A stretch of 64,000 nucleotides of DNA, taken from IMG/VR virus record IMGVR_UViG_3300045988_179268, positions 255,427 through 319,426 of that record. One strand, written 5' to 3'. A model generated the notes under the pieces. The model saw only the letters and a list, made by a program, of their open reading frames with translations. It ran no database searches and had not been told where the DNA came from. Below are positions 5,110 to 45,368 of the stretch, in pieces (position 1 is the stretch's first letter; each line of letters starts with the position of its first letter). Origin of the DNA: a virus. A program made the position numbers and the translations under genes.

Positions 5110-5262
5110 AGTTCCTTTCAGTATTTTTAGATGATTTGCAGTATTGAGTGTATCACATATGTTGGCTGGTGGTCGAGGAGCCGTTTTCAGATGTGGTACA
5201 CTCGACTTACTAGGCGTGCAGGTGGCGCACCAATAAATGAAATCTCTCAAGAAGGACAATTT

Positions 5263-10285: not shown

Positions 10286-10303
10286 TACGGTGCAGATTTC
10301 TGT

Positions 10304-10534
10304 ATGGATAACAACAATAATTTCCCGGTGTACGAGTCGGATAAGTACCCACGCCCAGCAGTAACCCCGGAAGAAGCTCTCGCCGTTGTGGAAGCTGGTA
10401 TGGGTCTTGCGGGATACACATGCACCGACCCATACCTCAAGGAGCTACTGAGGCAGAGCGCGTATGGCGAAATTACATTTGAGGAATACAGTGAGGCGTG
10501 TACTAAGTACATCCTTGGTGATGACCGCGCCTAA
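10304..10534 (+). CDS. Small protein, weak VbhA-antitoxin-like pattern
   Basis: ...AVVEAGMGLAGYTCTDPYLKELLRQSAYGEITFEEYSEAC resembles the VbhA layout (xLEGLxPS...YxxGEIsxeE). The inhibitory S-x3-E-G glutamate is not present. No SD sequence; the ATG sits 18 nt after the tnpB-like stop. Confidence 0.3.
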   Translation: MDNNNNFPVYESDKYPRPAVTPEEALAVVEAGMGLAGYTCTDPYLKELLRQSAYGEITFEEYSEACTKYILGDDRA

Positions 10535-10588
10535 ATAATTCCGCATATAGACGCTATTAGCGAGAGGGCATTTACATATCTACCGCCA

Positions 10589-10628
10589 AAAAGCCTGGTG
10601 TGAGTGATAGAACTCACGCCAGGCTTTT
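10589..10628 (+). terminator. Rho-independent terminator
   Basis: Stem aaaagcctggtgtgagt/actcacgccaggctttt (one G-U pair) ending in a T-run. Confidence 0.8.
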
Positions 10629-10638
10629 AACATGGAAT

Positions 10639-10667
10639 TTCACAACCATCTAAAAATGTGGTACAGT
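10639..10667 (+). promoter_or_regulatory. Promoter, TTCACA-N17-TGTGGTACAGT
   Basis: Member of the recurrent TGTGnTAnAnT motif. It lies inside the ORF-track N-terminal extension of the VWA gene. Confidence 0.55.
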
Positions 10668-10694
10668 ATAAGTATTGGAAAGGAGGGTAACGGA

Positions 10695-12461
10695 TTGCCC
10701 ACTCAGATTATTATGGCACCCCCGCCGGGTGCTCCCGCAGTAAACAGCATTACAGGTCAGCCCATCAATGGCGAAAAGCCTGAAAAGCCGCCTATTAAGG
10801 TGCGCAAGCTAACCCCTAAAGAGCTTGAGAGGTATATTCACTATATCCAGGAGCTTGTTAAGATTACCCCATACTTCGCACCTATCCTTCGACAGTTGCG
10901 CCCCGCAATTATCAACACGGACAAGGCGTATATTGATAAGCATTGGCGAATCGCGCTCCCTGAGGGCTCCCTAGATGACTATCTGGATTTTGAGACGTTT
11001 ACGAAGATAATGCGTGAAGCGTTGCGTATCGTTATTATTCAGCGAGAACGCGCCGCCCGCGCAGGATACCGTGACGACGAAACCGCCCGCGCATCGTTTG
11101 ACCTGGAAATTAACCAGCGCCTTAGTGGTCTTGGTGGACGAATCAAGCTCGACCCTGAGAATGACTTTGTTCCTGCCGACTACGACCTCCCCCCGTTCGG
11201 TGTCGCGGAGGAGTTCTACGACACCATTCTCCAGTATTTCGAAGAGGAGGAACCCCCTTCGGGTGGCAACTCTTCTAATTCTAATAATGGTCAGCAGGGC
11301 GGGAAGTCTACCAACGGTAGCGGCAACGGAACCCCTACCTCTTCTAACGGGAATAAGGGCTCTGGTACCGCTTCTAAGGGCGGTTCAAGCTCCAACCAAG
11401 AAGAAGGTGGCGACAACCAGGAAGACCCCAACCAGGAAAACACTGGCGATAACGATACTAGCGATTCTGGTAATGGCAACGGTGACGTTGAAGATAGCCA
11501 GGGTGATGAGAGTCAGGATTCTGGCAACGGGGCACCGCCTGACACTTCCGACGAGGAAGGTGGTGACGGCGGCGGCGGTAGTGACACAGGAGAAGATGGT
11601 GAAGAAGACGGAAGCGGTGGGATTACCGACGAGTTCGTGACCAACCACAACCTCCAGGCACTAATGGACGGCGCAGGCATCCAGGCGGCAAGCGAAATGG
11701 TCAAGCGTGAATCTCGTAAGGACATGCTCGCCAAGGTTCGCCAGGAACAGGCTAAAAAGAGCCGAGGCAAGGGTCACAACGAAAGCATCCTTGATTGGGT
11801 TACGAAGACCGAAGCAGGAAACACTGTTCACTGGACTGCATTGCTCAAGCGAACCCTGGCGACGGCTTCTAGCCAGCGAACCGCCGGTGAGACTTACCGA
11901 ACATTCCGCAAGTACAACCGTCTAAACGTCATCATGCCGGATAACCGAGTCATGTTCCCTACCTACTATGACACGAAGCCTCATGTTTACGTGGGTGTGG
12001 ACACGTCAGGCTCCATGCTGAACGAAGTAGACTCCGGTCGCGCATTGGGTAATATCGACCGCATCTTGAATGATTTTAGGAATCGCGCTGAAATGCGAAT
12101 CTGCGCCATTGACACAAAAATGGGCGAGTTCCAGAATGTGAGGGACATCTCCGAAATTAATTTCGTTGGTGGTGGTGGCACTGAAATGGCTCCCTTCGTC
12201 AAGGCTCTCAATGAGTATGACAAGGGTACTGACAGCAAGCACCCGCCCGCCGCGCTAGGAATCCTTATTACGGACGGATACATCGACTGGAAGGCTGTAG
12301 CTAGGGAACTTGGTCAGCGCCACAATTACAAGCTGGCTATCGTCCTCACCTCAGACCACAACAGAAACTCTGTGGTGGAGATGAACAACTACTTTTCCCA
12401 CCTGCCGCTTAACGCACGACCTACCATCATTAAGATTGAGCGCCCGCGAAGCAACTTCTAA
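10695..12461 (+). CDS. VWA-domain protein with a long acidic G/S/N/D-rich linker (CobT / DUF2201-like partner of the adjacent ATPase)
   Basis: TTG 10695 sits 8 nt after AGGAGG; ATG 10713 is an alternative. MIDAS motif VYVGVDTSGSM, then GGGGTEMAP and ILITDGYIDW. About 130 aa of low complexity (GGNSSNSNNGQQGG...GEDGEEDGSGG). Confidence 0.75.
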   Translation: MPTQIIMAPPPGAPAVNSITGQPINGEKPEKPPIKVRKLTPKELERYIHYIQELVKITPYFAPILRQLRPAIINTDKAYIDKHWRIALPEGSLDDYLDFETFTKIMREALRIVIIQRERAARAGYRDDETARASFDLEINQRLSGLGGRIKLDPENDFVPADYDLPPFGVAEEFYDTILQYFEEEEPPSGGNSSNSNNGQQGGKSTNGSGNGTPTSSNGNKGSGTASKGGSSSNQEEGGDNQEDPNQENTGDNDTSDSGNGNGDVEDSQGDESQDSGNGAPPDTSDEEGGDGGGGSDTGEDGEEDGSGGITDEFVTNHNLQALMDGAGIQAASEMVKRESRKDMLAKVRQEQAKKSRGKGHNESILDWVTKTEAGNTVHWTALLKRTLATASSQRTAGETYRTFRKYNRLNVIMPDNRVMFPTYYDTKPHVYVGVDTSGSMLNEVDSGRALGNIDRILNDFRNRAEMRICAIDTKMGEFQNVRDISEINFVGGGGTEMAPFVKALNEYDKGTDSKHPPAALGILITDGYIDWKAVARELGQRHNYKLAIVLTSDHNRNSVVEMNNYFSHLPLNARPTIIKIERPRSNF

Positions 12462-12513
12462 CGCATCAATCCCCAATACCACTTAACCCACCTACAGATA
12501 GGAAATAATCACT

Positions 12514-14064
12514 ATGTCTGCAACCTCTAACAAGGCGACTGGAAACATCTCTGTCGCACCCCTGCCCCTCAAGAAGGCAATGAATTTCGTGAAGACCCTT
12601 GCCTTCCCGAAGAGCAACACTGACGGCTCCCTGCGCCCCGGCTTGTCCGTAGCGCTGATTGGCGAACCCGGTATCGGTAAGACTGCCGCTATTCACGCTC
12701 TCAAGGATGAAATGAACTATGAAGGCGTTGAGGTACTTATCGGTTCTCAGCTGTCCCCTGAAATGATTGGTGGCATCCCATCGGTGGGTGAAACCACTGT
12801 CACTAATGCTGACGGTGTTGTAGAACACATCCCTTCTACCGCATACCTAAACGAGCCGTTCCAGGTTCGTATCCGCGAGAAGAAGAAGGTTATTCTACTG
12901 CTGGATGAGTACAGCAACTCTGGTCCTAACGTCCAGGCGGCTATGCTGTACATCTTTAATGAGCGCCGCTTCCCGGATGGCACTGAAATTCCCGCAGAAA
13001 CCGTTATCCTTTTGGCGACGAACTCTGCTAACTCTTCGGTGAACCCGAACCCCATTGCTCCGCCTACTCAGAACCGTGTCGCATGGCTTCCTGTGACGCA
13101 GGATAAGGACGGCTGGGTTGAAGGCGCTATTGATAACTGGGGTAAGCCTATGCTTGAGCATGAGCCTGCTATCCGTAAGATGGTAGTCAAGTACATGTCT
13201 GACCGTGACGGCGCACTGCATGAGGACGACCGCGATTCCCGCCTTGACCGCTTTGCGTCGGATATGGATAACAACTGCCGCGATGCCGCTACTTACGCAT
13301 GGCGTTCACCTCGAAGCTGGGATAACCTCATTCACGCACTGGCTTTGGCACCTCATGACGACAAGGACACGTTTATTGATTATGCGGAGACTGTTGCGAC
13401 TGCCATTATTGGTTTTGACGGTTACAATGCGTTCAGGGGCGCACTTAGCCGCTACGCAGAGTCGCTGAATAGTGATAATTCTGTCGCCATGATGACCATT
13501 GAAGAGATGTTCGCAGACCCCGGCAAGCTGTCTAAGGGCGTTAAGGAGAACGACCAGAACCTTGCATCTGATGTTGCTGAGCGTCTGGCTGATTACATTC
13601 AGGATAAGATTGACGGCGTGCCTAAGTCTGGCGCTTCCAAGAAGCAGAAGGATGCCCTGGGTGAGGATATTGCGAAGGCATGTAGCTTCATCTACACCCT
13701 TGTGGATGCTTCGTCTCCGTTGAACAATGTTGCATTCCGCGCACCTCTGCATGTGACGCTTACCAAGATTATTGATGCACTCGGTAAGCGAATGGACATC
13801 TTGGGTATTGACCCGGCTAAGCCTGGTCTTCACGTCCCGCACTCCGCACTCTCTGACATGTACTCTAAGTACCTGCTGAATAACCTGCCGCTGGCTTCTA
13901 TGGGCCTTCCTGCTGACACGAATGTGAATCCTCAGAGTGCCAAGGAGGAGAAGGAGCTTAAGAAGAAGCTAGAAAAGGTGATGTGGCACCCGCTGTCTAT
14001 CCCTACCACTTTGATGGCTCAGGCATACTCTAGCCTGCATGATGTAGATAACAATAAGCGTTAA
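12514..14064 (+). CDS. AAA+ ATPase, MoxR / AAA_5 (CobS-like) type
   Basis: Walker A LIGEPGIGKTAA. Walker B VILLLDEYSN. NVQAAMLYIFNERRFPDG...ETVILLATNS matches the MoxR/AAA_5 core. Confidence 0.8.
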   Translation: MSATSNKATGNISVAPLPLKKAMNFVKTLAFPKSNTDGSLRPGLSVALIGEPGIGKTAAIHALKDEMNYEGVEVLIGSQLSPEMIGGIPSVGETTVTNADGVVEHIPSTAYLNEPFQVRIREKKKVILLLDEYSNSGPNVQAAMLYIFNERRFPDGTEIPAETVILLATNSANSSVNPNPIAPPTQNRVAWLPVTQDKDGWVEGAIDNWGKPMLEHEPAIRKMVVKYMSDRDGALHEDDRDSRLDRFASDMDNNCRDAATYAWRSPRSWDNLIHALALAPHDDKDTFIDYAETVATAIIGFDGYNAFRGALSRYAESLNSDNSVAMMTIEEMFADPGKLSKGVKENDQNLASDVAERLADYIQDKIDGVPKSGASKKQKDALGEDIAKACSFIYTLVDASSPLNNVAFRAPLHVTLTKIIDALGKRMDILGIDPAKPGLHVPHSALSDMYSKYLLNNLPLASMGLPADTNVNPQSAKEEKELKKKLEKVMWHPLSIPTTLMAQAYSSLHDVDNNKR

Positions 14065-14079
14065 GGTGTAGTTTGACAC

Positions 14080-14139
14080 GAAAAGCCGTACCAATTTAAG
14101 TAAATCCACGGGGTTAATACTTAAATTGGTACGGCTTTC
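14080..14139 (+). terminator. Hairpin terminator
   Basis: 22-bp stem gaaaagccgtaccaatttaagta/tacttaaattggtacggctttc followed by gtctttt. Confidence 0.8.
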
Positions 14140-14185
14140 GTCTTTTCCCTTAATAATTAGTGCATTGATAGCGGCTTGCAAAATA

Positions 14186-14196
14186 TGTGGTACAAT
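14186..14196 (+). promoter_or_regulatory. Extended -10 element TGTGGTACAAT
   Basis: Recurrent motif, 57 nt upstream of ATG 14253. No good -35. Confidence 0.55.
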
Positions 14197-14252
14197 ATCT
14201 ATATACAGTTTTTCGTTTACTCACTAGAGAATCCACAGAGAGGTAACTGGCA

Positions 14253-15170
14253 ATGAGCCTCACAGACCCGCGCAATCAAGAAACCACTGGCAAGCTTTGC
14301 GCCGCCTCCCCAAGCATTTCTGACAACGCAAAAGTCACGGGTGAATCCACCTTCACCGGAAACCCTAGCTCCCTATCGGGAAACGCACATGCCCACAACG
14401 TAAACCTTACGGCGTGTACCCTGTCTGGCAATGCAGAGGTTGCCAACGGTATCCACATGGGGCTTACCGCAACCGGTAATGCATCTCTTCACGGGTGTAC
14501 AACAATGCTTAAAAGCGCCATTTCGGGGAATGTGAAGGTTCGCGGGAACATTCTTGTATGTGGCGGAAAGCTTAGCGGCAACGTTGAAATTAACGACTTT
14601 GGAGCCGCCGGTGACCCGTGCCCCGTCTTCCCCTGCAACAACGGAGACAGACTATATGACATCGCCCACCTTGCAAGCACTACGGCGGCTTCCGGCAAAG
14701 CCGTCATTAAAGAGCTAGCCTATAGTTCTTTGGCAATAATCAACGCTAATGGCGACTACAGTAGCCTGCGTATCTGCCTCAACGGTGAAGCTCACACGGA
14801 AAACAATCCTCGATGCCACTGCCTCCTCTGGCTCCCCCTCCTACTTGTATGCGACCCTATCGCTACGCACTATTTCCTCCGCGTAGGTGGTAAGCTACAG
14901 CCTATGGGTGAAGGTCATAAGAGCGTGTATGCCGAAGATAGTATCCGCAACCCCTATAATGCATTTAGCTACACCAGCCTTGAAACGCTCATGCGGAAGT
15001 CTCTGGAAGAGCTACCGGATAAATCCTCTGATGATATTTGTAGCCTACTGCTAACGAACATTGAGGCACACAATATGGGCGACAGCATCCCCGATGAATA
15101 CCCTGAGAGCCTATTAAGTCAGTGGGCAGACATCATCAAGGTAGCAACCGGAACCAATATCTTCGATTAA
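14253..15170 (+). CDS. Beta-helix / Cys-His-module family protein
   Basis: Repeats SGNAHAHNV, SGNAEVANG, TGNASLHG, SGNVKVRGN, SGNVEIND, then ICLNGEAHTENNPRCHCLLWLPLLLVCDPIATHYF and DSIRNPYNAF. Confidence 0.85.
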   Translation: MSLTDPRNQETTGKLCAASPSISDNAKVTGESTFTGNPSSLSGNAHAHNVNLTACTLSGNAEVANGIHMGLTATGNASLHGCTTMLKSAISGNVKVRGNILVCGGKLSGNVEINDFGAAGDPCPVFPCNNGDRLYDIAHLASTTAASGKAVIKELAYSSLAIINANGDYSSLRICLNGEAHTENNPRCHCLLWLPLLLVCDPIATHYFLRVGGKLQPMGEGHKSVYAEDSIRNPYNAFSYTSLETLMRKSLEELPDKSSDDICSLLLTNIEAHNMGDSIPDEYPESLLSQWADIIKVATGTNIFD

Positions 15171-15191
15171 GAGCTAAGGAAAGAACCACCT

Positions 15192-16439
15192 ATGCCTGAA
15201 CAGACCGTCGTTGAGCCTTATGCTCACGTTTACACTGTCCTTGATTACTCCAAGGCAGATACCGAGAAAATCACCACACCCACAGGTAAAGCACCAGCAG
15301 TTATTACCAAGGTTCAGAAAGCTGGCGGTAAGCTTATTGCCATCAATGAACGCCGGTGTGAAAATGTTGCTAAGGGTGCGCAATTTGTCGTGGAATCTCC
15401 CGCCAATATGCCGGATGTGAATTTTGGCAATACTGATGAAATTGCCCCTACTGAGTTTTGGGCACCCACCAACGGAGAGGTTCGCCACCCGGCACGCATG
15501 GGCTGGCTTTACGCCACCAGCCCTAAAACTATTGTGGCTGTGGTTGATGAGGCTGTACTGGAGGGGCGCTCTAGCTTTGATGGCGTGAACGTCGTTAAGG
15601 GGCGTGCTGTCGTGAAGGATGCCCGCCTGGAAGGAAAATGCTCCGTAGAAGATGACGCAACCATTAATGGCGGCTGTCATACATTCCTCAAGATGTTCAA
15701 TAAATCAGCAATTACTGGTAATGTAGTCACTGACTGCGTAAAGCTTACAGGCAATGCCCGGATTATGGGTAATGTCAGTGTCCACAATCTACATTTATCT
15801 GGCAATACCCTGATTGACGCACGTGGCTGTGTCCCCGAAGGAGAGCATGTTAATGTTGGTCCTTGGTTTGGCAGGCTCATTAATGACCTTACCGAGTTTG
15901 ACACGTTGCAACTTTTTGGATACTCAGACGAGATGAGCCTTAAGAACTTGTGTCGCATTGCAGAAGCGGTGGGTGGCAATCTTATGCCACCTGATTCACG
16001 TGGAGAGAACCCTTGGCTGAGGGAGGTGACGTTCTGCCTCGACCCGGAGGTTCATGCCCAACATATTGACCGTTGCCGTTGTGCCCTATGGAACCCCTTG
16101 GCGCTCCTTGGCAACGCCGCCGCGATTCATTATATTGTTCGAGCTGAGGGTCTTCTTAAGCCCCCTGGTGAAGCCGTAACACCGTATCTGGACAGTTCAA
16201 TGAGTAACCCTTTTAGCTCATTTTCAATTCTCCAGCTGGAAGACTTAATGAGTGAAGTGTATTCTGGCATGTATGTTGCAGACCGTTATTACGGCAGTAG
16301 CTTCGAGAAAGATAGGGTTACGGAGATGTACATTGAGAACTACGATGCATTCGGAGTGGATATTCCTAGTGAGGATGTTATTACTTCTGAATGTCTCCAA
16401 CAGTTACGGAGCATCATCTTAGGCAAGCCCTGGCTGTAG
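15192..16439 (+). CDS. Beta-helix / Cys-His-module family protein
   Basis: ITGNVVTDCVKLTGNARIMGNVSVHNLHLSGNTLID, then FCLDPEVHAQHIDRCRCALWNPLALLGNAAAIHYI. Confidence 0.85.
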   Translation: MPEQTVVEPYAHVYTVLDYSKADTEKITTPTGKAPAVITKVQKAGGKLIAINERRCENVAKGAQFVVESPANMPDVNFGNTDEIAPTEFWAPTNGEVRHPARMGWLYATSPKTIVAVVDEAVLEGRSSFDGVNVVKGRAVVKDARLEGKCSVEDDATINGGCHTFLKMFNKSAITGNVVTDCVKLTGNARIMGNVSVHNLHLSGNTLIDARGCVPEGEHVNVGPWFGRLINDLTEFDTLQLFGYSDEMSLKNLCRIAEAVGGNLMPPDSRGENPWLREVTFCLDPEVHAQHIDRCRCALWNPLALLGNAAAIHYIVRAEGLLKPPGEAVTPYLDSSMSNPFSSFSILQLEDLMSEVYSGMYVADRYYGSSFEKDRVTEMYIENYDAFGVDIPSEDVITSECLQQLRSIILGKPWL

Positions 16440-16448
16440 GTGCTGGGT

Positions 16449-16482
16449 GTAGTGGCATATATCTCCCGATATGTGCCACTAC
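16449..16482 (+). terminator. Hairpin terminator
   Basis: Stem gtagtggca/tgccactac followed by ttttat. Confidence 0.6.
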
Positions 16483-16513
16483 TTTTATGAGTTCCATACA
16501 TATCCAAGCAATA

Positions 16514-16524
16514 TGTGGTACACT
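16514..16524 (+). promoter_or_regulatory. Extended -10 element TGTGGTACACT
   Basis: Recurrent motif, 32 nt upstream of ATG 16556. Confidence 0.55.
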
Positions 16525-16555
16525 ATTTGTAGTTAATTATTTTTTAGGAGGAAGA

Positions 16556-17767
16556 ATGAGTGACACTCAGATTACTATCACCTGCGAAACTGTAGCTCCG
16601 AGTGAGGGGCGTAACCCAAAGGAGGATACGCTCGTCATTGGTGCTACTAAGGTAAAGGCGCTAAATCAGCTCATCGAATCGGATAAGAGCCTGATTTACG
16701 CATATGCGCCCGGCAATACGCCTGAAAACAACTATCCCGTAATCGTAGCCACCAGTGAAGGTAATCTCCCTGACGTGGACTTCGATAACCCCACAGGGGT
16801 AGACGGCAATGAGTATCCTGCCACCAGTAAGTTCATGCGTGCCAACAGCTACTCTGACTACACTTCGCTAGTCATTGACAACGCGCGCGTATTTGGCGAT
16901 GTAACTTTCAATGAAACATCTCTCATTGAAAACAATGCCACCGTTCGCGACACTACCCTAAACAATGTGACCGCATCCGGCAACTCCAGTATTACTGGCG
17001 GCTCCCACGATAGGCTGACCATCAAGAATAAGGCGACCATTAATGGCGTGACGACCGAGAAGTGCACCATCAAGAACAACGCCTATATTAGTGGAAACAT
17101 CAGGTTTAGCAATGTGACGCTTGAGGGAGATATTAAGATTGACATCCCCCATTCAGACACCGCACTTAATCTCGCAGAGAACACCGAGAAGCTTCTTTAT
17201 AACATTAAGGAAACTAAACCTAACCGTAAGACTAGGCAATTCTACAACGCGGGAAAGTCTTTCGATAGGAAGAGTCTGCTAAACATGCTGTACATCACGA
17301 AGACGGTACTTGAAGACTCGAACGCCCTAAGTGGCGTATGGTGTATCGACCACGCCACACACAAGGAAAACATGGGACTCTGCCACTGCATGTTGTGGTA
17401 CCCGCTGTACCTTATGGGTAACGGAATCGCAATGCAGTACTTCTTCCGCGCAGACGGCATCCTACAGCCTGCCGGTCATGCCCTAAGTGTAAATGTGGAA
17501 GACTCTATCCGCAACCCTTACAGCGCGTTCACAAACGTAATGATGGAAGACCGTATGCGCCTCGTCATTGATGAAATCCTTCAAAGCGACGCTCACCCTA
17601 CCGCATCTTACGGAACTGAGACTGAAACATCTAAGCGATGGAAGGAAGCGGTTACCACATATATTCCTGAAACGAAGAACTTTCCTGTAGTGCTAAGCCG
17701 CACAAAGTGGTGGAACTACAGGTGTGACATCATTGGCGCATCTGAGCTTCGGTTTGGAACACTCTAA
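16556..17767 (+). CDS. Beta-helix / Cys-His-module family protein
   Basis: ATG 16556 (MSDTQITI) follows AGGAGG. The ORF-track start at 16391 runs through a terminator and a promoter. WCIDHATHKENMGLCHCMLWYPLYLMGNGIAMQYF and DSIRNPYSAF. Confidence 0.85.
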   Translation: MSDTQITITCETVAPSEGRNPKEDTLVIGATKVKALNQLIESDKSLIYAYAPGNTPENNYPVIVATSEGNLPDVDFDNPTGVDGNEYPATSKFMRANSYSDYTSLVIDNARVFGDVTFNETSLIENNATVRDTTLNNVTASGNSSITGGSHDRLTIKNKATINGVTTEKCTIKNNAYISGNIRFSNVTLEGDIKIDIPHSDTALNLAENTEKLLYNIKETKPNRKTRQFYNAGKSFDRKSLLNMLYITKTVLEDSNALSGVWCIDHATHKENMGLCHCMLWYPLYLMGNGIAMQYFFRADGILQPAGHALSVNVEDSIRNPYSAFTNVMMEDRMRLVIDEILQSDAHPTASYGTETETSKRWKEAVTTYIPETKNFPVVLSRTKWWNYRCDIIGASELRFGTL

Positions 17768-17788
17768 AGACGAGTCATAACCAGGTTG

Positions 17789-17824
17789 GGGGTGCTAAAG
17801 TTTTTTATTAAATTTTGGCACCCC
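17789..17824 (+). terminator. Hairpin
   Basis: Stem ggggtgctaaagtt/aattttggcacccc (two G-U pairs). No downstream T-tract. Confidence 0.45.
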
Positions 17825-17861
17825 TAACATAACTACCTTATAGAAGTAAGGAGCCTCAGCT

Positions 17862-18866
17862 GTGAATCACGGAACCGTAAGCACTGTTTCTGTAAGCGGC
17901 GTGACAACGAACGGCACCTGTTCCTTTAGAGGTAACGCTCAAGTGTCGGGCGGAACACACACGAATCTAGTTGCTAATGATGACACAAAAATTCTTGGCA
18001 ATGTCAGTACTTATAGAGTGACTGCAACAGGTAAAACCACCATCTCAGGGAACATTCACGTGTACAAAGCGCAGATTGGTGGGGATACCGTTATTGAGGT
18101 TCCTGACGATTTGCCTGAGCCTGCTATTCTTGCGGCTAAAAACAGCGCTAATGGAGTATCTGAGTATAACCAACTGCGTTATGACTTCAAAGACATTACA
18201 CCACACCCTACACGCCAGGGTACGGTGTGGGATAGCTCGTATCTAGCTCCAGCCGCCGGTATCTTACGCGGATTAACCGCAACATACGGACTATTGAAAA
18301 GCGCCTCATGGAGAGAGTTCACTATGTGCCTCAAAGCATCTAAGCATAAGGCACATAATTTACACTGTCGTTGCCTCATGTGGTATCCGCTCATCATGGC
18401 TGGCGACCCACTGGCGTTACAGTATTTGTTCCGGGTAGAAGGTTTGTGTGTTCCGTCAGTCGAGAATGTGGGTTATCCATCCCTTGATGGCACTATCAGG
18501 AACCCGCTTAGCGCACTTAGCTTCTCAGCTTTAGAAAACCTCTTGTCAGAAACAATATCCAGCATCATGGAAGATTGCCTACAAGATGACGTGGACACTA
18601 CCGATGCAGACCTATACCCGTGGGGCGTATATGTTGCAGAGGACGAACTAGAGAGTGCAGATGCGCAAAGAGTGATGAATAACATCTATTTGAATTTATG
18701 TCGAAACATTCAACCTATCTATCACCCTGTTACAGTGAGCCAGCATCAAATAAAGTCAAATTTTAATACCGAGTACCACACCACCTGGTATAAATATGTT
18801 AGACAGTTGCCAGAAAGCTGGCTAACACACTACAGGAATATTGCTGGTACATCCCCCACCATTTAA
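17862..18866 (+). CDS. Beta-helix / Cys-His-module family protein
   Basis: GTG 17862 sits 8 nt after AAGGAG. RGNAQVSGG, LGNVSTY, SGNIHVYKAQIGGDTVI, then MCLKASKHKAHNLHCRCLMWYPLIMAGDPLALQYL. Confidence 0.85.
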   Translation: MNHGTVSTVSVSGVTTNGTCSFRGNAQVSGGTHTNLVANDDTKILGNVSTYRVTATGKTTISGNIHVYKAQIGGDTVIEVPDDLPEPAILAAKNSANGVSEYNQLRYDFKDITPHPTRQGTVWDSSYLAPAAGILRGLTATYGLLKSASWREFTMCLKASKHKAHNLHCRCLMWYPLIMAGDPLALQYLFRVEGLCVPSVENVGYPSLDGTIRNPLSALSFSALENLLSETISSIMEDCLQDDVDTTDADLYPWGVYVAEDELESADAQRVMNNIYLNLCRNIQPIYHPVTVSQHQIKSNFNTEYHTTWYKYVRQLPESWLTHYRNIAGTSPTI

Positions 18867-18868
18867 AG

Positions 18869-19966
18869 ATGAAGAAGGAGACAATGGAAGAGTTTATTGC
18901 GCCTTTCACAGTGAGCTACACTGACCGCCGCCGCAACCCCAAGAAGCACACCTTATATATTTCGACAACAGAGGAGAATGCTCCTACCGGCGAAGGATTC
19001 AATATTTCGCCAGATGCCCAATTGGGCACTATTAAGCATCTAACTCTTAATCACTGCTCCGTTGATAGTGGTGCTGTGGTGCTTAGTGGCAAGCATAGGG
19101 ATTCATCTTTTGATAGCGGTACTTATATTGATGGCAACGTTGATAGTGTTGGAGTAAGCTTTCAGCCGTCACATGAGGGACGTATCTATATCGAGGGTGA
19201 CATTACTATTGTGGGGCGTAATATTTGCGGGGATTTCACTCTCAAGGCAACCACTAGTGGCGAAACAAAAATTTCGTTCGGTCAGCCGCGACTGCTTTAT
19301 TTTCAAAATAAAGGAGACGGCGACTTACTTTACCATCTGCCATCCCTCCTTGCTGTTGAAGGTGAAGATTATGAAGTTGGTATCATTCGCCCGCACACCA
19401 CTGATTTAAGCAGGGGAGACGCACAGAAAAAGCTAAGCGCACTTGAGAAGAACACTGAAAACCTCTCTCAAAGTGGTGTGACAGTGAAAACTTTCTGTGT
19501 CGCTTCTAAAATTCACAACTCTGATAGTTGCCGCTGTGGAATGTACTACCCGCTATTGCTGTTGCGCCACCCACTTGCAATTACATATTTCATCAAAGCT
19601 GTTGATGGGCTGGAGCAGTATATCCCCGAGGCGTACAGTAACCTCACCTGGGCACAGCTCACTCAGATGCTTAATGATGTTAATGAACGTAATGATTATC
19701 TGATTGATAAAATTGCGGATGAGTTGGGAACTAATATTGGCGAGGACAGTTTGAGTGTCAAGCTTTACGAAACTCTCAAGCGTGACTATGGGCTACACGA
19801 CCTGACATTATTGTTTGGTGAGTTAAAGCCTGCGATGAAGGCAGATATTACGCGGGCGCTTACTATTGATAGCGACCGTGGCGTGTATTTCATGCATAGT
19901 GTCGCGGGTAGTGACAAGTTACATAAACGTTCCTATCGGAAGATTCTAGAAGGAGAGGTCTTCTAG
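18869..19966 (+). CDS. Beta-helix / Cys-His-module family protein (subfamily B)
   Basis: The start is coupled to the upstream stop; ATG 18884 is an alternative. FCVASKIHNSDSCRCGMYYPLLLLRHPLAITYF and YSNLTWAQL. Confidence 0.8.
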   Translation: MKKETMEEFIAPFTVSYTDRRRNPKKHTLYISTTEENAPTGEGFNISPDAQLGTIKHLTLNHCSVDSGAVVLSGKHRDSSFDSGTYIDGNVDSVGVSFQPSHEGRIYIEGDITIVGRNICGDFTLKATTSGETKISFGQPRLLYFQNKGDGDLLYHLPSLLAVEGEDYEVGIIRPHTTDLSRGDAQKKLSALEKNTENLSQSGVTVKTFCVASKIHNSDSCRCGMYYPLLLLRHPLAITYFIKAVDGLEQYIPEAYSNLTWAQLTQMLNDVNERNDYLIDKIADELGTNIGEDSLSVKLYETLKRDYGLHDLTLLFGELKPAMKADITRALTIDSDRGVYFMHSVAGSDKLHKRSYRKILEGEVF

Positions 19967-19985
19967 CGGTAGGATAGGTATTGAA

Positions 19986-20020
19986 GTGTCCCCTTGCGAT
20001 TTATTATCTCAAGGGGACAC
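19986..20020 (+). terminator. Hairpin terminator
   Basis: Stem gtgtcccctt/aaggggacac followed by tttg. Confidence 0.7.
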
Positions 20021-20038
20021 TTTGCGTCACGCCGCTAC

Positions 20039-20067
20039 TGGACAACAATTTAAATATGTGGTACACT
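20039..20067 (+). promoter_or_regulatory. Promoter, TGGACA-N17-TGTGGTACACT
   Basis: Recurrent motif, 40 nt upstream of GTG 20107. Confidence 0.6.
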
Positions 20068-20106
20068 TTTAGTGAAATTACTTATCTACTACCATAAGGA
20101 AGCATT

Positions 20107-21708
20107 GTGACCACCCAGCACACCACTAAGGCACTGCTGAAATACAGCCCCGGTTGGACACCCATCACGAACACAACCAGCCTCCCCATCTGGCAACATG
20201 GTGGTTCTAACGTCATCCCTAAGAAGAAGCAACGAACCATCCAGGAACCTGATGGTGTTTGGCGTATCCCTCTTAGTGAAACCTTAAAAGACGGACGCGG
20301 AACCCTGCACACCCCTTTCACGAACGTTTGGAGCGAAGTAGACAGAAAGGTTCGCCCTGAGAATTGGCAGTACCTATCCGTTCTCTACAGTACTGCCGGA
20401 AAATACAATAAGGATAGTGGCGCAATGGAGCCAAATCCTGACGCACCCCTACCGACCGTAATTCGTGACCCTAACGTCAATATTCCCGCCGTTTTTAGTG
20501 ATGCAGAACAGGTTCTCTACAAGTATGATAATGTGTATTCACTGCCCGGATGTGTTGAAAACCTTCTAGGTGGCAACTATATCTACGGTCGAGCTACCGT
20601 AAACCCATATGAGGTTGATATGCGCAATGCAGGTTGTCGAATCTCGGGGGATGCCACTATTGAAAGCGGTGTAATTACTAAAAACTCTATGCCACATGGA
20701 GTGTTTGACGGTCTGCCGCTAACGTCATATTCCAGCAACTCGAAGCTGTTCATTAAAGGTAAAACTGTCGTTCGCAACAGTGCCATCTACCGTGACTGCG
20801 CATTGACAGGAAATACTCTTATTGAAGACAGTTTGCTAGAGAGCGTCCACGTGACCAGTGATAATATCGACCTACATCTCAGCGATGTAAAAATTCTGGG
20901 TGCTGATTTTGCAAGTGAAGGCAATATCGGCATCTCTGGAGCTAAGGTTAAGGGTCTTCATGCCAGGCGAGACGCAAACCTCAGCCTGTCTGGTCAGGCA
21001 AACATTGAACATGTCTGGCTTGAAGGCGGAAATGCTCACATTGAAGGAAATATTGGCTTCATGCTTAGCGCTTTTGGTGGTTCCTTCAAGCTTCGAGCAA
21101 CAGCCCCCAAGGATGGTCGTGGTAGTGACTACCTTTTTGACCGCGTGAACGGATACTACATCCTGCCTCTCATGTTGTCTCAGCGCGACTTTGAATCCTG
21201 TATCCACTGGGATGATGGCTGGACTTCGCCAGAGACAGTTTTCTCTATTAATGTGCTGGGGACGCTTAACCTGAGCACTCAATTGCTACGGAAGCCGCAT
21301 AATATTGAGCAGTTCTGTTGTCTGCCGGACACTCACTTGAACGACCAGTGCCGTTGCGCATTGTACTACCCGCTGTTTCTGATGTGTCACCCGATGGCTG
21401 TTACATACTTCCTTAAGACGGGCGGCTTGGATAATTCGGTTCCTGTACAGTATCAGAGCTTGTCTATTGCCCAGCTTGAAAGCAGTATGGATAACCTTAT
21501 TGTTGAGGTGGGAGAGAATCTGGATATGCGCCAGTCTGTCATTCATTTTATTGGACTCATGAACGGATATGTGCCCGATATTGGAAGTGTGCAAGAGATG
21601 AAAGATACTATTTGTAAAATTTACGGTGTAGACGTTGCTGATATTGTGCGGGACAAGTGTGATTATCGACTGCCATTGGGTCGTAACACGCGGTTTTTCC
21701 GCCGTTAG
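20107..21708 (+). CDS. Beta-helix / Cys-His-module family protein (subfamily B)
   Basis: GTG follows AAGGAAG. SGDATIESG...TGNTLIEDS...EGNIGISGAKVKG...SGQANIEHVWLEGGNAHIEGNIGF, then CCLPDTHLNDQCRCALYYPLFLMCHPMAVTYF and YQSLSIAQL. Confidence 0.85.
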   Translation: MTTQHTTKALLKYSPGWTPITNTTSLPIWQHGGSNVIPKKKQRTIQEPDGVWRIPLSETLKDGRGTLHTPFTNVWSEVDRKVRPENWQYLSVLYSTAGKYNKDSGAMEPNPDAPLPTVIRDPNVNIPAVFSDAEQVLYKYDNVYSLPGCVENLLGGNYIYGRATVNPYEVDMRNAGCRISGDATIESGVITKNSMPHGVFDGLPLTSYSSNSKLFIKGKTVVRNSAIYRDCALTGNTLIEDSLLESVHVTSDNIDLHLSDVKILGADFASEGNIGISGAKVKGLHARRDANLSLSGQANIEHVWLEGGNAHIEGNIGFMLSAFGGSFKLRATAPKDGRGSDYLFDRVNGYYILPLMLSQRDFESCIHWDDGWTSPETVFSINVLGTLNLSTQLLRKPHNIEQFCCLPDTHLNDQCRCALYYPLFLMCHPMAVTYFLKTGGLDNSVPVQYQSLSIAQLESSMDNLIVEVGENLDMRQSVIHFIGLMNGYVPDIGSVQEMKDTICKIYGVDVADIVRDKCDYRLPLGRNTRFFRR

Positions 21709-21732
21709 TAATCATGCCTGACAGTGGCATTG

Positions 21733-21778
21733 AATGGGGGTGTACTTGGCGACATAAATCGCCAAGTACACCCCCATT
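21733..21778 (+). terminator. Hairpin terminator
   Basis: 20-bp perfect stem aatgggggtgtacttggcga/tcgccaagtacacccccatt with a 6-nt loop. Confidence 0.8.
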
Positions 21779-21797
21779 CTTAAGTATCTACCCAATC

Positions 21798-21825
21798 TTG
21801 CAACACTTCTAATTTGTGGTACAAT
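21798..21825 (+). promoter_or_regulatory. Promoter, TTGCAA-N16-TGTGGTACAAT
   Basis: -35 at 21798-21803 and the motif at 21815-21825. Confidence 0.65.
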
Positions 21826-21869
21826 AAACTTGATAAGCTATTTTTGCATTAACAAAAAGGAGAATACTA

Positions 21870-23576
21870 ATGACTTCCACTTCAATGGACTGCCGCCACC
21901 TTATCAAGTATGCGCGAAACCTTAGCAAGAATACTCGATTCCCTGTTTTTCAGCACGCTTACCCTCAAGTAACTAAAGACATTCAGCCCTTTACCTTCGA
22001 GTCAGTCCCTAAGGAGCTTGTCTTGTCCGTTAAGGGTGATGACCTGGCTCCTAGAACTGGCCCCTACTATTATACGGGGGAATGGTATGAGTCTAATCAG
22101 GCGCACCCATACTTTCACTACGTACTCTACGACACCCTGTTTTGGGGTAGTAGAGTTTATAATGAAGACTACTCTTACCCCTCAGTCTTTGAAGATATTG
22201 AGAAGAACCTTCCAAGCCTTCATAAGCACCTCACCATTGCTGGACGAAAGGGACGCAACACCTACTCCCTTCCGCCGGAAGTCTCTAGGAATATCATTGG
22301 CGGCAATAAGATTTACGAAGATGCGAAGGTAGACCCTTTCACCGTAAACATGCGCAATGCTAGGGCGACAATTAGGGGAAAAGCATCTATTGTAAATACT
22401 ACTATTAGCAATGAATCCTCTGAGGACGACTTCGAGATTCCTCGCGGCAGAACCTCTTCCGACTATAGAATCAATATCGGTGGAGACGTTGAAATTAAGG
22501 ACTCCGCTATTTATCATGGTACACAGATTGAAGCCTCTGGAATTATTGCCGGTAGCACCATTGATTCCTTTTGGCACTATGACAAATACGAGGAATACCC
22601 TAAGCTTACATTAGATGTAGCCAATAGCACCTTAAAGGGTATTGTTGCTAATAATTATGATGAAGATAATTTCCCAAACCAATCCATTAAAGTCATTGCA
22701 AAGGATGCAACTATTGATGGGGGCTCTATTAAGGGTTCTTCTTTCCTCAGCATTGAGGGCGCTAGTTGCACTGGCATAGAGGTGTGGAACAGTTCTGTAT
22801 CAATCCTTACCCCTGGTGTAGCACTAAGCTCAACTTCCTTCTATGATGGGAGTAGCTTCACTCTGAGTGGCAATTTTTCATCATTCTGTACGTCATTCTA
22901 TGGTGCTGGAGTTATTGATATTGAGAGCGACGACCACTGGCTACCTGGAGATAATGCATGGGGGGAGGGTCGCAAGATGGCAACCTTCAACCTGTTATAC
23001 TCCGTCCCCTATCTCGCTTCCGCTATTTTTAACCAACCCATTGAAGAGATTGAGAGGCGGTTTCATGTAAATGGCGAGCTGGATACATATAACTACTCTA
23101 AGGTTTTGGAGAAGTCTATCTCGGGAACATTGCGTGCCGCACGTTCAGTTATTCAAACCGGCGCTACTATCAATAGGTTCTGTGTTGCCCCCGATGCACA
23201 CGTCTACGATGACTGCAAATGTGCGCTGTACTACCCACTTCTCCTTGAAGGTGATACAGCCGGGATTCTCTACTTCCTTAAGGTGTCAAACTTAGAGGAA
23301 CATATTCCGCTCCCGTACAAGTATTTGTCGTTTGCACAGCTACGAGACATGATGACCAGCATTGTGAATGAGCGAACAGATGCGTCTTGGGATGGAAACT
23401 GGTGGGAATTGTCCTCAGAGTATTCTAAGAAAATTTCAATGCAGACTCTTAATGACACTATCCGTACACCACAGGATGTTCGCGATGCCGTGACTGGATT
23501 TTGTGGACTAACTGATTTCAGTAAACTTGTTGGACATGCAACGGATGGTTTCAACTTCTCCAATCTTACTGAGTGA
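21870..23576 (+). CDS. Beta-helix / Cys-His-module family protein (subfamily B, largest)
   Basis: ATG sits 7 nt after AAGGAG. FCVAPDAHVYDDCKCALYYPLLLEGDTAGILYF and YKYLSFAQL. Confidence 0.85.
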   Translation: MTSTSMDCRHLIKYARNLSKNTRFPVFQHAYPQVTKDIQPFTFESVPKELVLSVKGDDLAPRTGPYYYTGEWYESNQAHPYFHYVLYDTLFWGSRVYNEDYSYPSVFEDIEKNLPSLHKHLTIAGRKGRNTYSLPPEVSRNIIGGNKIYEDAKVDPFTVNMRNARATIRGKASIVNTTISNESSEDDFEIPRGRTSSDYRINIGGDVEIKDSAIYHGTQIEASGIIAGSTIDSFWHYDKYEEYPKLTLDVANSTLKGIVANNYDEDNFPNQSIKVIAKDATIDGGSIKGSSFLSIEGASCTGIEVWNSSVSILTPGVALSSTSFYDGSSFTLSGNFSSFCTSFYGAGVIDIESDDHWLPGDNAWGEGRKMATFNLLYSVPYLASAIFNQPIEEIERRFHVNGELDTYNYSKVLEKSISGTLRAARSVIQTGATINRFCVAPDAHVYDDCKCALYYPLLLEGDTAGILYFLKVSNLEEHIPLPYKYLSFAQLRDMMTSIVNERTDASWDGNWWELSSEYSKKISMQTLNDTIRTPQDVRDAVTGFCGLTDFSKLVGHATDGFNFSNLTE

Positions 23577-23590
23577 TATGTGAGACAATA

Positions 23591-23627
23591 ACGTAAACCC
23601 GCCCATATTTTTTGGGTGGGTTTACGT
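23591..23627 (+). terminator. Hairpin terminator
   Basis: 15-bp stem acgtaaacccgccca/tgggtgggtttacgt followed by ttgttt. Confidence 0.75.
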
Positions 23628-23651
23628 TTGTTTACCCAAAAAAATATGGGG

Positions 23652-23681
23652 TTGCGCAAGTTTCCTAATCTGTGGTACACT
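23652..23681 (+). promoter_or_regulatory. Promoter, TTGCGC-N18-TGTGGTACACT
   Basis: The motif is at 23671-23681. Confidence 0.6.
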
Positions 23682-23724
23682 ATCCATATAGCAAGCGTTG
23701 AAGTACCACAGAGAGGAAGAACCG

Positions 23725-24045
23725 ATGACCGCAAAGGACTTCACCCCCGCAATTGAAGCAGACCTCAACAACGAGGTAGCCAAAGAGGAAAGCCTGCTCC
23801 AAATCGCTACTTCCTGGGCAAACTACTGGGCTGAGAAGCTTGAAGATGCCAAGACTGCCTACGACCGCGCCCTAGAAGCAATCCAGACCGTCGGCGTACA
23901 GGCACTTGCCATTGCCCGCAAAACCTACGAGAAAGCAACCAAAAAGTTTAAGGAAGCCAAGAGCCGTGTTGAAGAGCATGTAGAAGCACTCAAAGCTCTC
24001 TACGTCCTCTATTACGAGTTCGTAACCCCTTACACCGCAAAGTAG
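23725..24045 (+). CDS. Hypothetical helical/charged protein
   Basis: ATG 23725 (MTAKDFTP) follows GAGAGGAAG. Confidence 0.7.
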   Translation: MTAKDFTPAIEADLNNEVAKEESLLQIATSWANYWAEKLEDAKTAYDRALEAIQTVGVQALAIARKTYEKATKKFKEAKSRVEEHVEALKALYVLYYEFVTPYTAK

Positions 24046-24051
24046 CCCACA

Positions 24052-24240
24052 ATGAACTACTTCACCGCATTGTCAAACAAGCTTGACGAGGCGTACACCC
24101 TAAAGCCCGGCGAAACCTACCACGTCGAATCCGCCACTAACGCGGTCATCGCACACCTCGCCAAGGCTCAAAAGACCTACAACCAGCTCACCCACACAGA
24201 ACTAACCACCATCATTCAACGCCACATCAGCAACAGCTAA
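24052..24240 (+). CDS. Hypothetical protein
   Basis: ORF-track frame. The start is 6 nt after the upstream stop, with no SD sequence. Confidence 0.5.
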   Translation: MNYFTALSNKLDEAYTLKPGETYHVESATNAVIAHLAKAQKTYNQLTHTELTTIIQRHISNS

Positions 24241-24261
24241 GACACCTACAGGAGGCACAAA

Positions 24262-24516
24262 ATGAAGATTAGTGGATACGCCATTGAACGCATTCACAAG
24301 AACATGTACCGCATTATCAACGCAGATGGTCAGCAGGTAGGCATTATCGAACGAAACAAGCAGGCATCTATCCGCCCTGGCACTGGGCGCTGGCACGCAC
24401 GCGGAACCTCAAAGATTACCAGCTACAAGGGACTCACCGCACAGGGCAACAACCTTCGTGAAACACTCACCATCTTCATTGAGTGCCCTTGCCGAACCTA
24501 CATCATTAGCGCCTAA
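24262..24516 (+). CDS. Hypothetical protein
   Basis: ATG sits 7 nt after AGGAGG. Confidence 0.7.
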   Translation: MKISGYAIERIHKNMYRIINADGQQVGIIERNKQASIRPGTGRWHARGTSKITSYKGLTAQGNNLRETLTIFIECPCRTYIISA

Positions 24517-24526
24517 TCGAGCCAAT

Positions 24527-24573
24527 GTTGCGCCTAGTGGGAGGAACCTCACAGCCTCCCCACTAGGCGCAAC
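24527..24573 (+). terminator. Hairpin terminator
   Basis: Stem gttgcgcctagtgggagg/cctccccactaggcgcaac (one bulged nucleotide). Confidence 0.7.
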
Positions 24574-24682
24574 TCATTAAAGATTGATATACTGGGTGAT
24601 GCCTCAAGAGTAAGGCAAAACCTTTGAAGTTAAAAACGGTGACTTCGCTAGGTTCATTCACTCTAACACGAAAGGAAACAGT

Positions 24683-25291
24683 ATGTCTCATGGCTCACGT
24701 TTCATCTACACCGTAACCCAGACCAGCCCAGCTAACGAAGACAATGCGGTCGCGTCTGTTACTGTCCTCGTGACCGACAAGCCGCATATCGGCAAGGATG
24801 GTAATGTTTCAGAGAATCAGAACCACACCGCATTACATGGAACTGCGTTCACTTTCAAGCCGCGTTCGTTCGCCGTCACGAACACATACTCTTACACCCC
24901 TAATGGTCGTAAGTACACCTTCACTCTCTTTAAGAGTGAGCCTGGCAATCGCATCGGTGGCGCAGACGGTCTGCTAGACGGCGGTATGCACAGTGGTACC
25001 GCCGCGAGTCGCTGGATTACTAACAGCACTGCCGTGCTCGAATTTGTTCGTGACTTTGTTGAAGTAAATCAGTTTGAGCTGAATACACTTATCTTGAGTA
25101 GCCGCGCTTGGGGTAAGGACAATGAGGAGTTGCTTAATGAGGCGCACACCGTGACGGGCATTTCAGTGCTTTCTGAAAATGTTCAGACGGCGTTCCTTGC
25201 AAGCCTGGAGGTTCAGTCGAATCTTGCGAACAGTCTTGTAACGAAGTATGTTGCCACGGCGCGACCTGAACTTAATAACTCCAACGACTAA
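24683..25291 (+). CDS. Hypothetical protein
   Basis: ATG follows GAAAGGAAA. Confidence 0.7.
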   Translation: MSHGSRFIYTVTQTSPANEDNAVASVTVLVTDKPHIGKDGNVSENQNHTALHGTAFTFKPRSFAVTNTYSYTPNGRKYTFTLFKSEPGNRIGGADGLLDGGMHSGTAASRWITNSTAVLEFVRDFVEVNQFELNTLILSSRAWGKDNEELLNEAHTVTGISVLSENVQTAFLASLEVQSNLANSLVTKYVATARPELNNSND

Positions 25292-45319: not shown

Positions 45320-45331
45320 TATACCATAATT

Positions 45332-45344: not shown

Positions 45345-45368
45345 TTAGGGGACATCCTCAATATAGGG

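Follow-up and report, generated by a model that had tools for sequence, protein, structure and literature searches.

Pairs of a MoxR-type AAA+ ATPase and a von Willebrand factor A (vWA) protein act together with a modular third component that is encoded next to them and has a conserved C-terminal domain (Kaur et al., 2020; PMC7159879). In these vWA-MoxR ternary conflict systems the third component is termed VMAP, and its C-terminal domain, VMAP-C, is a mixed alpha+beta domain of about 7 strands in which polar residues are conserved (PMC7159879). A MoxR-vWA pair with an N-terminal metallopeptidase is also noted in jumbo phages (Iyer et al., 2021; PMC7824862). Here we analyzed a 64,000-nucleotide (nt) stretch of DNA (hereafter the window; IMG/VR record IMGVR_UViG_3300045988_179268, positions 255,427 to 319,426) from what is called a giant, uncultured, gut jumbo phage-like element. 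The window carries a pair of this type, followed directly by a tandem array of seven paralogous genes, and an eighth copy is dispersed upstream. The encoded proteins share a C-terminal domain (hereafter the module) marked by four invariant Cys and His residues. Judged from sequence and from predicted structure, the module is a new domain family without detectable relative among the libraries searched. The solenoid that precedes it and the MoxR/vWA neighborhood are already known kinds of parts.

The eight open reading frames (ORFs) are present in the ORF list on the + strand where the original prediction, made from the letters of the window, had placed them (Table 1), and they are paralogues, seven in tandem and one dispersed. 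For gene 3 the gene itself stands, but its start at 16391 does not. The longer ORF contains a terminator (16449–16482) and a promoter (16514), and the protein is 403 amino acids (aa) long in independent gene calls, so 16556 is the more likely start. The eight genes sum to about 10.0–10.1 kb, not to the 10.5 kb given before. A hidden Markov model (HMM) of the module yields exactly eight matches across the window, with no match to the − strand. In BLASTP comparisons the paralogues match each other over both solenoid and module with E = 1e-5 to 1e-33, so their relationship is not due to chance. Family proteins are soluble, mildly acidic and three-part, with an N-terminal extension that is specific to each paralogue (0 to about 250 aa), a beta-solenoid and the shared all-alpha domain. 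By eye, none of them has a signal peptide or membrane segment, and they are therefore probably located in the reducing cytoplasm.

The Cys and His residues stand out in every alignment. Overall identity among the eight proteins is 18–25%, and their invariant residues are three Gly of the solenoid followed by C, H, C, C, P, L, and Y. A regular-expression check found all eight quoted motif strings to be correct. An exhaustive HMMER search with a profile of the eight modules against 1.84 billion cluster-representative proteins (E ≤ 1e-3) retrieved 48 proteins, 30 of them at E ≤ 1e-10, and C, H, and C-x-C are kept by every match covering the site. In a MAFFT alignment of 39 diverse modules, which are 16–43% identical to the reference, C, H, C, C, and Y are invariant, and an Ala (37/39), a Pro (35/39), a Leu (31/39) and a later Glu (31/39) are frequent. 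The family signature is Cys-x5-His-x(3-7)-Cys-x-Cys together with one Tyr, the sole invariant residues of the module. Loss of the Cys and His in more distant homologues had been named beforehand as the finding that would speak against a conserved site; they are kept in all 39 modules, and it is the neighboring "conserved" residues that drift. Thus the P and L of the proposed [WY]xPL block, although invariant in the eight copies, are replaced by PA, PF, GL, SL, GV, PQ, PR, PM or PH among the HMMER matches. The division into two tail subfamilies stands in part. The Y-x-x-L-[ST]-x-AQL tail holds for 18869–23576, but DSIRNPYxAF is exact only in 14253–15170 and 16556–17767, and the gene at 15192–16439 has the tail DSSMSNPFSSF. 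The subfamilies differ further in the His-to-Cys spacing (x6 or x4, and x3 in the dispersed copy) and by an insert of roughly 13 aa.

The family is rare. All traced sources are metagenomic contigs, most of 280–410 kb and up to 412 kb, and none of the cluster members has an NCBI or UniRef source, their names being "hypothetical protein." In a word-indexed homologue search, the 8-module profile had no match and the 39-module profile matched four short fragments. No match to the array (megablast) or to gene 3 (tblastn) was found among 50,697 phage records, and an IMG/VR search anchored on the ATPase returned two loci only. No description of the Cys/His module family was found in the literature searched.

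The structure of the gene 1 protein was modeled with AlphaFold2 from 46 sequences. The model has a mean predicted local distance difference test score (pLDDT) of 78.5, a predicted template modeling score (pTM) of 0.84 and a pLDDT of about 88–97 over the module; in a first run from 8 sequences the module had a pLDDT below 50, and this run was not used for fold search. The module is predicted to be all-alpha and ~130–150 aa long across the family, with helices at residues 145–165, 178–181, 190–198, 202–211, 234–237, 240–253, 259–272, and 284–299 of the gene 1 protein. In the model, C175 lies just ahead of a short helix, H181 forms its end, and C188 and C190 lie at the N-terminus of the next helix. 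With the whole model, Foldseek found no neighbor in PDB (best E = 0.49, TM ≤ 0.2) or in BFVD (best E = 0.29). Pfam searches (E ≤ 1) of the eight proteins, 46 aligned family members and 39 isolated modules gave only scattered singletons for the module, and no zinc-finger model, including zf-HC2, matched any of the 39 modules. The module is unmatched in PHROGs, where matches are confined to the repeat section, and NCBIfam gave nothing relevant for it. PADLOC defense and anti-defense models gave a single match, in one protein, at E = 0.041 and 10.4 bits, which does not place the family in any of them. FbpB (7rps), which appeared in the PDB sequence profile search at E = 0.003–0.56, was rejected as spurious, since the match covers a generic helical stretch only and leaves the Cys/His site uncovered. 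The original prediction had been unable to place the C-terminal module in any named family and had proposed profile searches and AlphaFold/Foldseek comparison as the check. These were run, and across Pfam, PHROGs, NCBIfam, PADLOC, PDB profiles and Foldseek against PDB and BFVD no characterized family covers the block.

The four Cys/His residues would probably bind one structural metal ion, most likely Zn2+. This is suggested because, besides one Tyr, they are the invariant residues of the module, because they fall within 12–16 residues at helix ends of the model, and because the cytoplasm in which the proteins probably reside is reducing. Four of the five invariant residues are Cys or His and no polar catalytic set is conserved, a pattern typical of a structural metal site. 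The metal ion would hold together the fold after the long first helix of the domain, with its ligands in loops and at helix ends. Zinc-binding anti-sigma (ZAS) domains are small and all-alpha and have the order Cys, His, Cys, Cys with the spacing C-x~25-H-x3-C-x2-C. The module has the same ligand order, but its spacing (C-x5-H-x3-7-C-x-C) and its position in the protein differ, and the likeness is a lead only.

A site of this kind could also be catalytic. Effector arrays in mobile elements are often enzymatic, and the module could be an enzyme with a catalytic Cys/His, for example a thiol hydrolase or transferase, or with a catalytic metal, its solenoid targeting substrates. The invariance of Cys and His together with the Tyr and the Glu kept in 31/39 modules is consistent with this, but the Cys-His gap of only 5 residues is unlike known Cys-His dyads, the Tyr is the only other invariant residue with no conserved set of Asp, Asn, Ser, Lys or Arg, and Foldseek found no enzyme fold while the Pfam matches are scattered noise. 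We consider an enzymatic module improbable. Alternatively, the cluster may be a redox or non-zinc site, such as a disulfide switch, a Cu(I) site or an iron-sulfur (Fe-S) site, which would make the proteins sensors and not static adaptors. Motifs of the C-x-C type are known from Cu(I)-binding proteins and thiol switches, and MoxR/vWA systems elsewhere insert metal cofactors. One His and three Cys in one short segment, however, most commonly form a structural Zn site, and the sequences do not resemble a known Fe-S or Cu-sensor family, which leaves the redox alternative very improbable.

The repeat section ahead of the module was predicted as a run of GN-type beta-helix repeats. A beta-solenoid is supported. 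Autocorrelation of the repeats is highest at 17 residues (sub-harmonics at 6, 11, and 22), and the model from 8 sequences has regular strands over aa 21–114 of gene 1. The solenoids are short, about 5–8 coils of about 17 residues. Among PDB sequences, the full-length profile matches YdcK best (2f9c, E = 5e-4), together with gamma-carbonic-anhydrase-like subunits, VioB, LpxA and eIF2B-epsilon. All of these are left-handed beta-helix (LbH) proteins, but the matches are weak (E = 5e-4 to 0.04). In the LbH/hexapeptide-repeat superfamily, imperfect hexapeptides in tandem build triangular coils of about 18 residues. NCBIfam YdcK_fam and Pfam B_solenoid_ydck, Hexapep and LbH_EIF2B also match weakly, all under curated thresholds. 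For the YdcK equivalog family NF040481, two of the eight proteins score 18.7–19.1 bits against a cut-off of 350. The solenoid is thus predicted to be triangular and LbH/YdcK-like in kind, without membership in a curated family. It resembles YdcK and LbH proteins in its ~17-residue period and three faces of ~6 residues, but the acyltransferase and carbonic-anhydrase active-site residues are not conserved, only Gly being invariant, and none of the YdcK, LpxA, gamma-carbonic-anhydrase-like or eIF2B-epsilon proteins has a C-terminal Cys/His module. DNA mimicry by the solenoid was rejected, as the solenoid parts are only mildly acidic (pI 5.2–6.5). Two small proteins in the window, at 5131–5790 (+) and ~33597–34058 (−), consist of a solenoid without the Cys/His module and share 30% identity over 140 aa. 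For the first of them, a promoter motif at 5192 implies a start later than that of the ORF, and the gene call is 199 aa.

Bactofilins are also short triangular beta-solenoids with a similar coil length, and some jumbo phages build cytoskeletal structures. The family could accordingly form a bactofilin-like polymer, with solenoids stacked end to end to organize a replication or assembly compartment in the infected cell. Weak matches to Bactofilin (PF04519) exist, the best at E = 3.6e-4, and within PHROGs the repeat section matches two families of unknown function (5070 and 7964). The best Bactofilin score is nevertheless 20.2 bits, below the gathering score of 27.9; 3/46 members match at E ≤ 0.1, and BacA (PDB 2n3d) reaches E = 1.2 against the family profile, with LbH proteins scoring better. 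Bactofilins have disordered tails, whereas the array proteins have a predicted folded C-terminal domain, and this helical domain after the solenoid (pTM 0.84) may cap that end. Moreover, 6–17 divergent paralogues would be unexpected for a polymer. The chance that the proteins polymerize in this way appears remote.

The gene order around the array is conserved. The order vWA, AAA_5 ATPase, array is common to four lineages, represented by the window, L007/L013/L014, L008, and L017+L015, and the ATPase-array synteny is also found in L007, L008, L012, L013/L014, and L017. Across those lineages the vWA and ATPase proteins are about 47–54% identical to those of the window. One further family copy lies a few kb upstream of the array, and a trio of small genes is conserved downstream. 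Copy number varies, with 7 tandem copies and 1 dispersed in the window, 6 and 1 in L007, L013, and L014, 5 and 1 in L008, and 16 tandem copies in the composite of L017 and L015, two loci that are 95% identical over a 1.3-kb overlap. Two unrelated multi-pass membrane-protein genes (L015 4792–5691 and 5704–6792) are inserted in the middle of the 16-copy array. Dispersed copies are also present in L003 and in L005, where the copy is next to thyA and DHFR, a non-structural context. With Walker A, Walker B and the metal ion-dependent adhesion site (MIDAS) kept, the pair looks competent from its sequence. The vWA protein has a peptidase-like N-terminal region in which R-E-x-L-R replaces HExxH in all four lineages, and a linker of ~130 aa with a high content of Gly, Ser, Asn and acidic residues. 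The true start of the vWA gene may be later than 10632, as suggested by a promoter motif at 10657. PHROGs places this protein in phrog_1314, "HNH endonuclease," a label that looks misleading. In an ORF at 1–696 of the window, a 62-aa stretch shares 34% identity with residues 263–322 of the MoxR-like ATPase (E = 1.5e-6).

The locus can be compared with the described MoxR-vWA systems. As in VMAP systems (PMC7159879), modular proteins with variable N-terminal parts are encoded beside MoxR and vWA, here directly after the AAA_5 gene in four lineages. In contrast to VMAP, the third component is multiplied to 5–16 tandem paralogues, the vWA protein lacks an effector domain, and the element is phage-like and not a cellular genome. 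By the description of VMAP-C the module is set apart from it, being predicted all-alpha with invariant C, H, C, C, and Y. The pair is of the same type as that described in PMC7824862, a vWA protein with a DUF2201-type N-terminal region, except that HExxH is replaced by R-E-x-L-R here. No associated beta-helix/Cys-His array is mentioned in the passages of that paper that were consulted. In the one annotated cultured phage inspected, Vibrio phage phiKT1024, no such array is present in the MoxR neighborhood.

Taken as a whole, the reading we favor is a metal-bound docking domain joined to paralogue-specific solenoids, possibly working with MoxR/vWA, and we assign it a probability of roughly 0.4. 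More tentatively, the conserved domain would be a common docking or assembly handle, with the solenoid and the N-terminus providing the binding specificity of each paralogue. Each genome would then deploy 6–17 different adaptors on one shared partner. The best candidate partner would be the vWA/MoxR AAA+ chaperone pair, which is directly 5' of the array in every lineage seen. It leads by analogy with the third component of cellular vWA-MoxR systems (PMC7159879) and with the jumbo-phage pair noted by Iyer et al. (PMC7824862). In the weakest step, the proteins would act in the infected cell as accessory host-interaction factors and not as core virion parts. A stronger form, which we regard as unlikely, is that vWA/MoxR and the array constitute an undescribed phage-borne chaperone with a battery of clients, the invariant Cys/His domain serving as AAA+ handle and as a new metal-binding fold. 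The AAA+ machine would then load, metalate, remodel or deploy 5–16 beta-helix adaptors, each for a different host target.

The arrangement of promoters and hairpins bears on how the array is expressed. The motif TGTGGTACAnT occurs 9 times without mismatch in the window, each time on the + strand. Allowing up to one mismatch raises the count to 16, compared with 4.07 expected, and 0/100 shuffles reach 16. The sites mostly lie 30–60 nt 5' of a gene start in the correct orientation, and the four ahead of array genes (Table 1) lie 40–60 nt from them. Many have a TTGCAx or TGGACA element 16–18 nt upstream, and for that reason the sites are read as sigma-70-type promoters with an extended −10 (TGn-TACAnT). 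The same motif is found 5' of a tRNA gene and small genes as well as of the vWA gene and the array genes. The block of large ORFs at 27–61 kb lacks it on the + strand. In relatives it recurs 5' of the vWA gene and of array genes (the latter in L007, L008, and L017). Each gap between array genes contains a hairpin of 14–21 bp (z = −4.5 to −9.3). The promoters, hairpin terminators and several transcription units proposed before are thereby confirmed at the level of sequence, and the array genes are predicted to lie in insulated transcription units under sigma-70-like extended −10 promoters.

The array had also been described as fast-diverging, which the comparison with relatives contradicts. Against the close strain L012, dN/dS (the ratio of nonsynonymous to synonymous substitution rates) is 0.09–0.32 for every family gene. 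The family genes are under purifying selection, and diversifying selection is rejected. Positional orthologues persist in genomes whose vWA and ATPase proteins are ~50% identical, and between orthologues the module is 32–50% identical, compared with 24–42% for the N-terminal part. In a neighbor-joining tree of modules, the copies of the window and L007 pair by array position on long branches, and L008 has lineage-specific duplications. This indicates old duplications whose copies were retained individually, along with some birth and death. Synonymous divergence from L012 is 0.04–0.10 for vWA, ATPase and genes 1–3, compared with 0.24–0.88 for genes 4–7 and the dispersed copy. Over 10291–25155, identity between the window and L012 is ≥94% at 10.3–17.8 kb, drops sharply at the gene 3/4 hairpin, runs at 69–95% through genes 4–6, reaches 97% at the start of gene 7 and then falls into downstream non-family genes. 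The sharp breakpoints at intergenic elements are the result of recombination between strains and not of array-specific hypermutation. Hyper-divergence specific to the array was likewise rejected, since the low-identity tract runs on into the downstream non-family genes. What varies across lineages is the tandem copy number (5–16) and the recombinational mosaicism.

Several observations weigh against a docking domain tied to the chaperone pair. Relatives are collinear over the whole region, down to the order of the small genes downstream, so the MoxR/vWA adjacency could be inherited gene order. Dispersed copies stand away from the pair (window 6138, L005, and L003), and gene 1 is set off from the ATPase gene by a terminator and a separate promoter. 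As an invariant 11-mer, the promoter motif could be specific to the phage and belong to any temporal class. Virion fibers, too, would be compatible with large beta-helix proteins encoded in tandem mosaic arrays beside an assembly chaperone.

The last point defines the main rival, which we consider rather unlikely. The proteins may be virion fibers, spikes or decoration proteins, with the solenoid as shaft or receptor-binding part, the module for attachment or (tri)merization and MoxR/vWA as assembly chaperone. LbH domains commonly trimerize, and tandem beta-helix paralogues, a copy number of 5–16 and mosaicism with sharp breakpoints are what such a set might display. A role in virion assembly was proposed for the MoxR-vWA pairs of jumbo phages by Iyer et al. 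(PMC7824862), where tail assembly of Acidianus two-tailed virus is cited as requiring such a pair. Nevertheless, no tail-fiber, tailspike or C-terminal intramolecular chaperone (Peptidase_S74) match was found in Pfam, PHROGs, PDB sequences, or Foldseek against PDB and BFVD, and the "putative tail fiber" chain 9rkv_M reaches E = 2.5 only. Conservation is at the C-terminus and variation at the N-terminus, opposite to most fiber sets, and the solenoids are short. The promoter class is shared with a tRNA gene and small genes, one copy adjoins thyA/DHFR, and the mosaicism extends beyond the array. Better fiber candidates exist in the window, namely an array of ~820-aa proteins and an adhesin-like 948-aa ORF. 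The features of the locus are listed in Table 1.

Table 1. Array genes, adjacent vWA and ATPase genes and predicted regulatory elements of the window (coordinates as positions of the window; ~ marks approximate module limits).
Feature	Position	Strand	Remarks
Dispersed family copy, 394 aa	6138..7322	+	C-x5-H-x3-C-x-C; module ~6975–7319, HMM E = 1.4e-20; positional orthologues in L007 and L008
vWA (DUF2201) protein	10632..12461	+	Pfam PF09967; MIDAS DTSGS intact; neighbor 5' of array in four lineages
MoxR-like AAA_5 ATPase	12514..14064	+	Pfam PF07728; Walker A GEPGIGKT and Walker B ILLLDE intact; directly 5' of array
Terminator-like hairpin with T-run, between ATPase gene and array	14082..14138	+	−37.1 kcal/mol; z = −7.75
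Promoter element TGTGGTACAAT, extended −10, genes 1–2	14186..14196	+	
Array gene 1, 305 aa	14253..15170	+	Solenoid ~aa 20–115; predicted all-alpha module ~aa 137–300; C175, H181, C188, C190, Y207
Array gene 2, 415 aa	15192..16439	+	Module ~15990–16436
Terminator hairpin after gene 2	16449..16482	+	15-bp stem and TTTT; z = −4.54
Promoter element TGTGGTACACT, gene 3, probably genes 4–5	16514..16524	+	
Array gene 3, 403 aa from revised start	16556..17767	+	ORF open from 16391; module ~17297–17764
Hairpin in gene 3/4 gap	17785..17828	+	19 bp, without T-run; z = −5.35; also strain recombination breakpoint
Array gene 4, 334 aa	17862..18866	+	GTG start; module ~18282–18863
Array gene 5, 365 aa	18869..19966	+	Short-spacer subfamily; module ~19451–19963; 360 aa from 18884 in some gene calls
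Hairpin after gene 5	19983..20023	+	z = −5.37
Promoter element TGTGGTACACT, gene 6	20057..20067	+	TGGACA −35 element 17 nt upstream
Array gene 6, 533 aa	20107..21708	+	GTG start; long N-terminal extension; module ~21271–21705
Hairpin after gene 6	21732..21779	+	21 bp, perfect; −48.3 kcal/mol; z = −9.32
Promoter element TGTGGTACAAT, gene 7	21815..21825	+	TTGCAA −35 element 16 nt upstream
Array gene 7, 568 aa	21870..23576	+	Module ~23136–23573
Hairpin terminator after gene 7, array end	23590..23628	+	z = −5.45

Sequence identical to the window is found in a 319-kb contig (IMG taxon 3300053491) and in a Logan contig. One public set lists this element as a "complete metagenomic plasmid," and close relatives are listed as viral genomes (IMG/VR 3300045988). 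Relatives of 307 kb and 361 kb are uncultivated viral genomes in IMG/VR from a human fecal co-assembly. The window encodes 7 tRNAs, has a G+C content of about 49% and carries almost all genes on one strand; GC skew is strongly positive from about 38 kb onward. Identity with Jug phages was rejected, as their G+C content is 27–30% compared with about 49% here. About 30 other ORFs of the window have almost no Pfam, PHROG or PDB match, and no RNA-polymerase DFDGD motif was found in the window.

Further features lie outside the array. A TnpB/Cas12f1-like_TNB gene (8684–10285) is located between the dispersed copy and the vWA gene. Its homologue in L012 (915–2465, −; 77% identical) lies elsewhere and is inverted, indicating that this segment is mobile. 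A 98-aa, extremely Ser-rich low-complexity ORF at 8202–8498 overlaps a 102-aa ORF in another frame. The region 42845–53191 holds a second, unrelated tandem array of four ~820-aa paralogues that are 39–52% identical and have no Pfam, PHROG or PDB match; one copy is split into overlapping ORFs (45405–46847 and 46738–48015) and could be a frameshift or a pseudogene. The 948-aa ORF at 55513–58359 (+) has Adhesin_P1_N and DUF11 domains and is nearly fully overlapped by an 886-aa ORF at 55720–58380 (−). The tRNA-Pro(TGG) gene at 54647–54721 shares 98.7% identity with tRNA-Pro genes of Synechococcus phages and is the sole match of a megablast of 40–64 kb against phage records. An insertion sequence (IS)-type transposase is encoded at 62519–63877 (phrog_506, E = 8e-42), in a patch with a G+C fraction of 0.44 compared with about 0.49. 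Among species-representative genomes, it is most similar to cyanobacterial sequences, at 38–39% identity only, which gives no host clue. In L005, three consecutive genes of 287–288 aa (18367–21041) suggest another tandem paralogue set in the clade.

The family marks an almost wholly unannotated clade of roughly 280–410 kb elements, classed both as plasmid and as virus, and one habitat was traced for this clade, the human fecal co-assembly with two relatives. Unannotated, clade-restricted families are common in huge phages. The module is a candidate new Pfam family and a clean target for structure determination and metal analysis, with a Cys/His signature that survives to the limit of detectable homology. 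The array, standing beside MoxR/vWA in 5–16 copies, is a testable candidate client of the giant-phage chaperone pairs, whose role is currently guessed.

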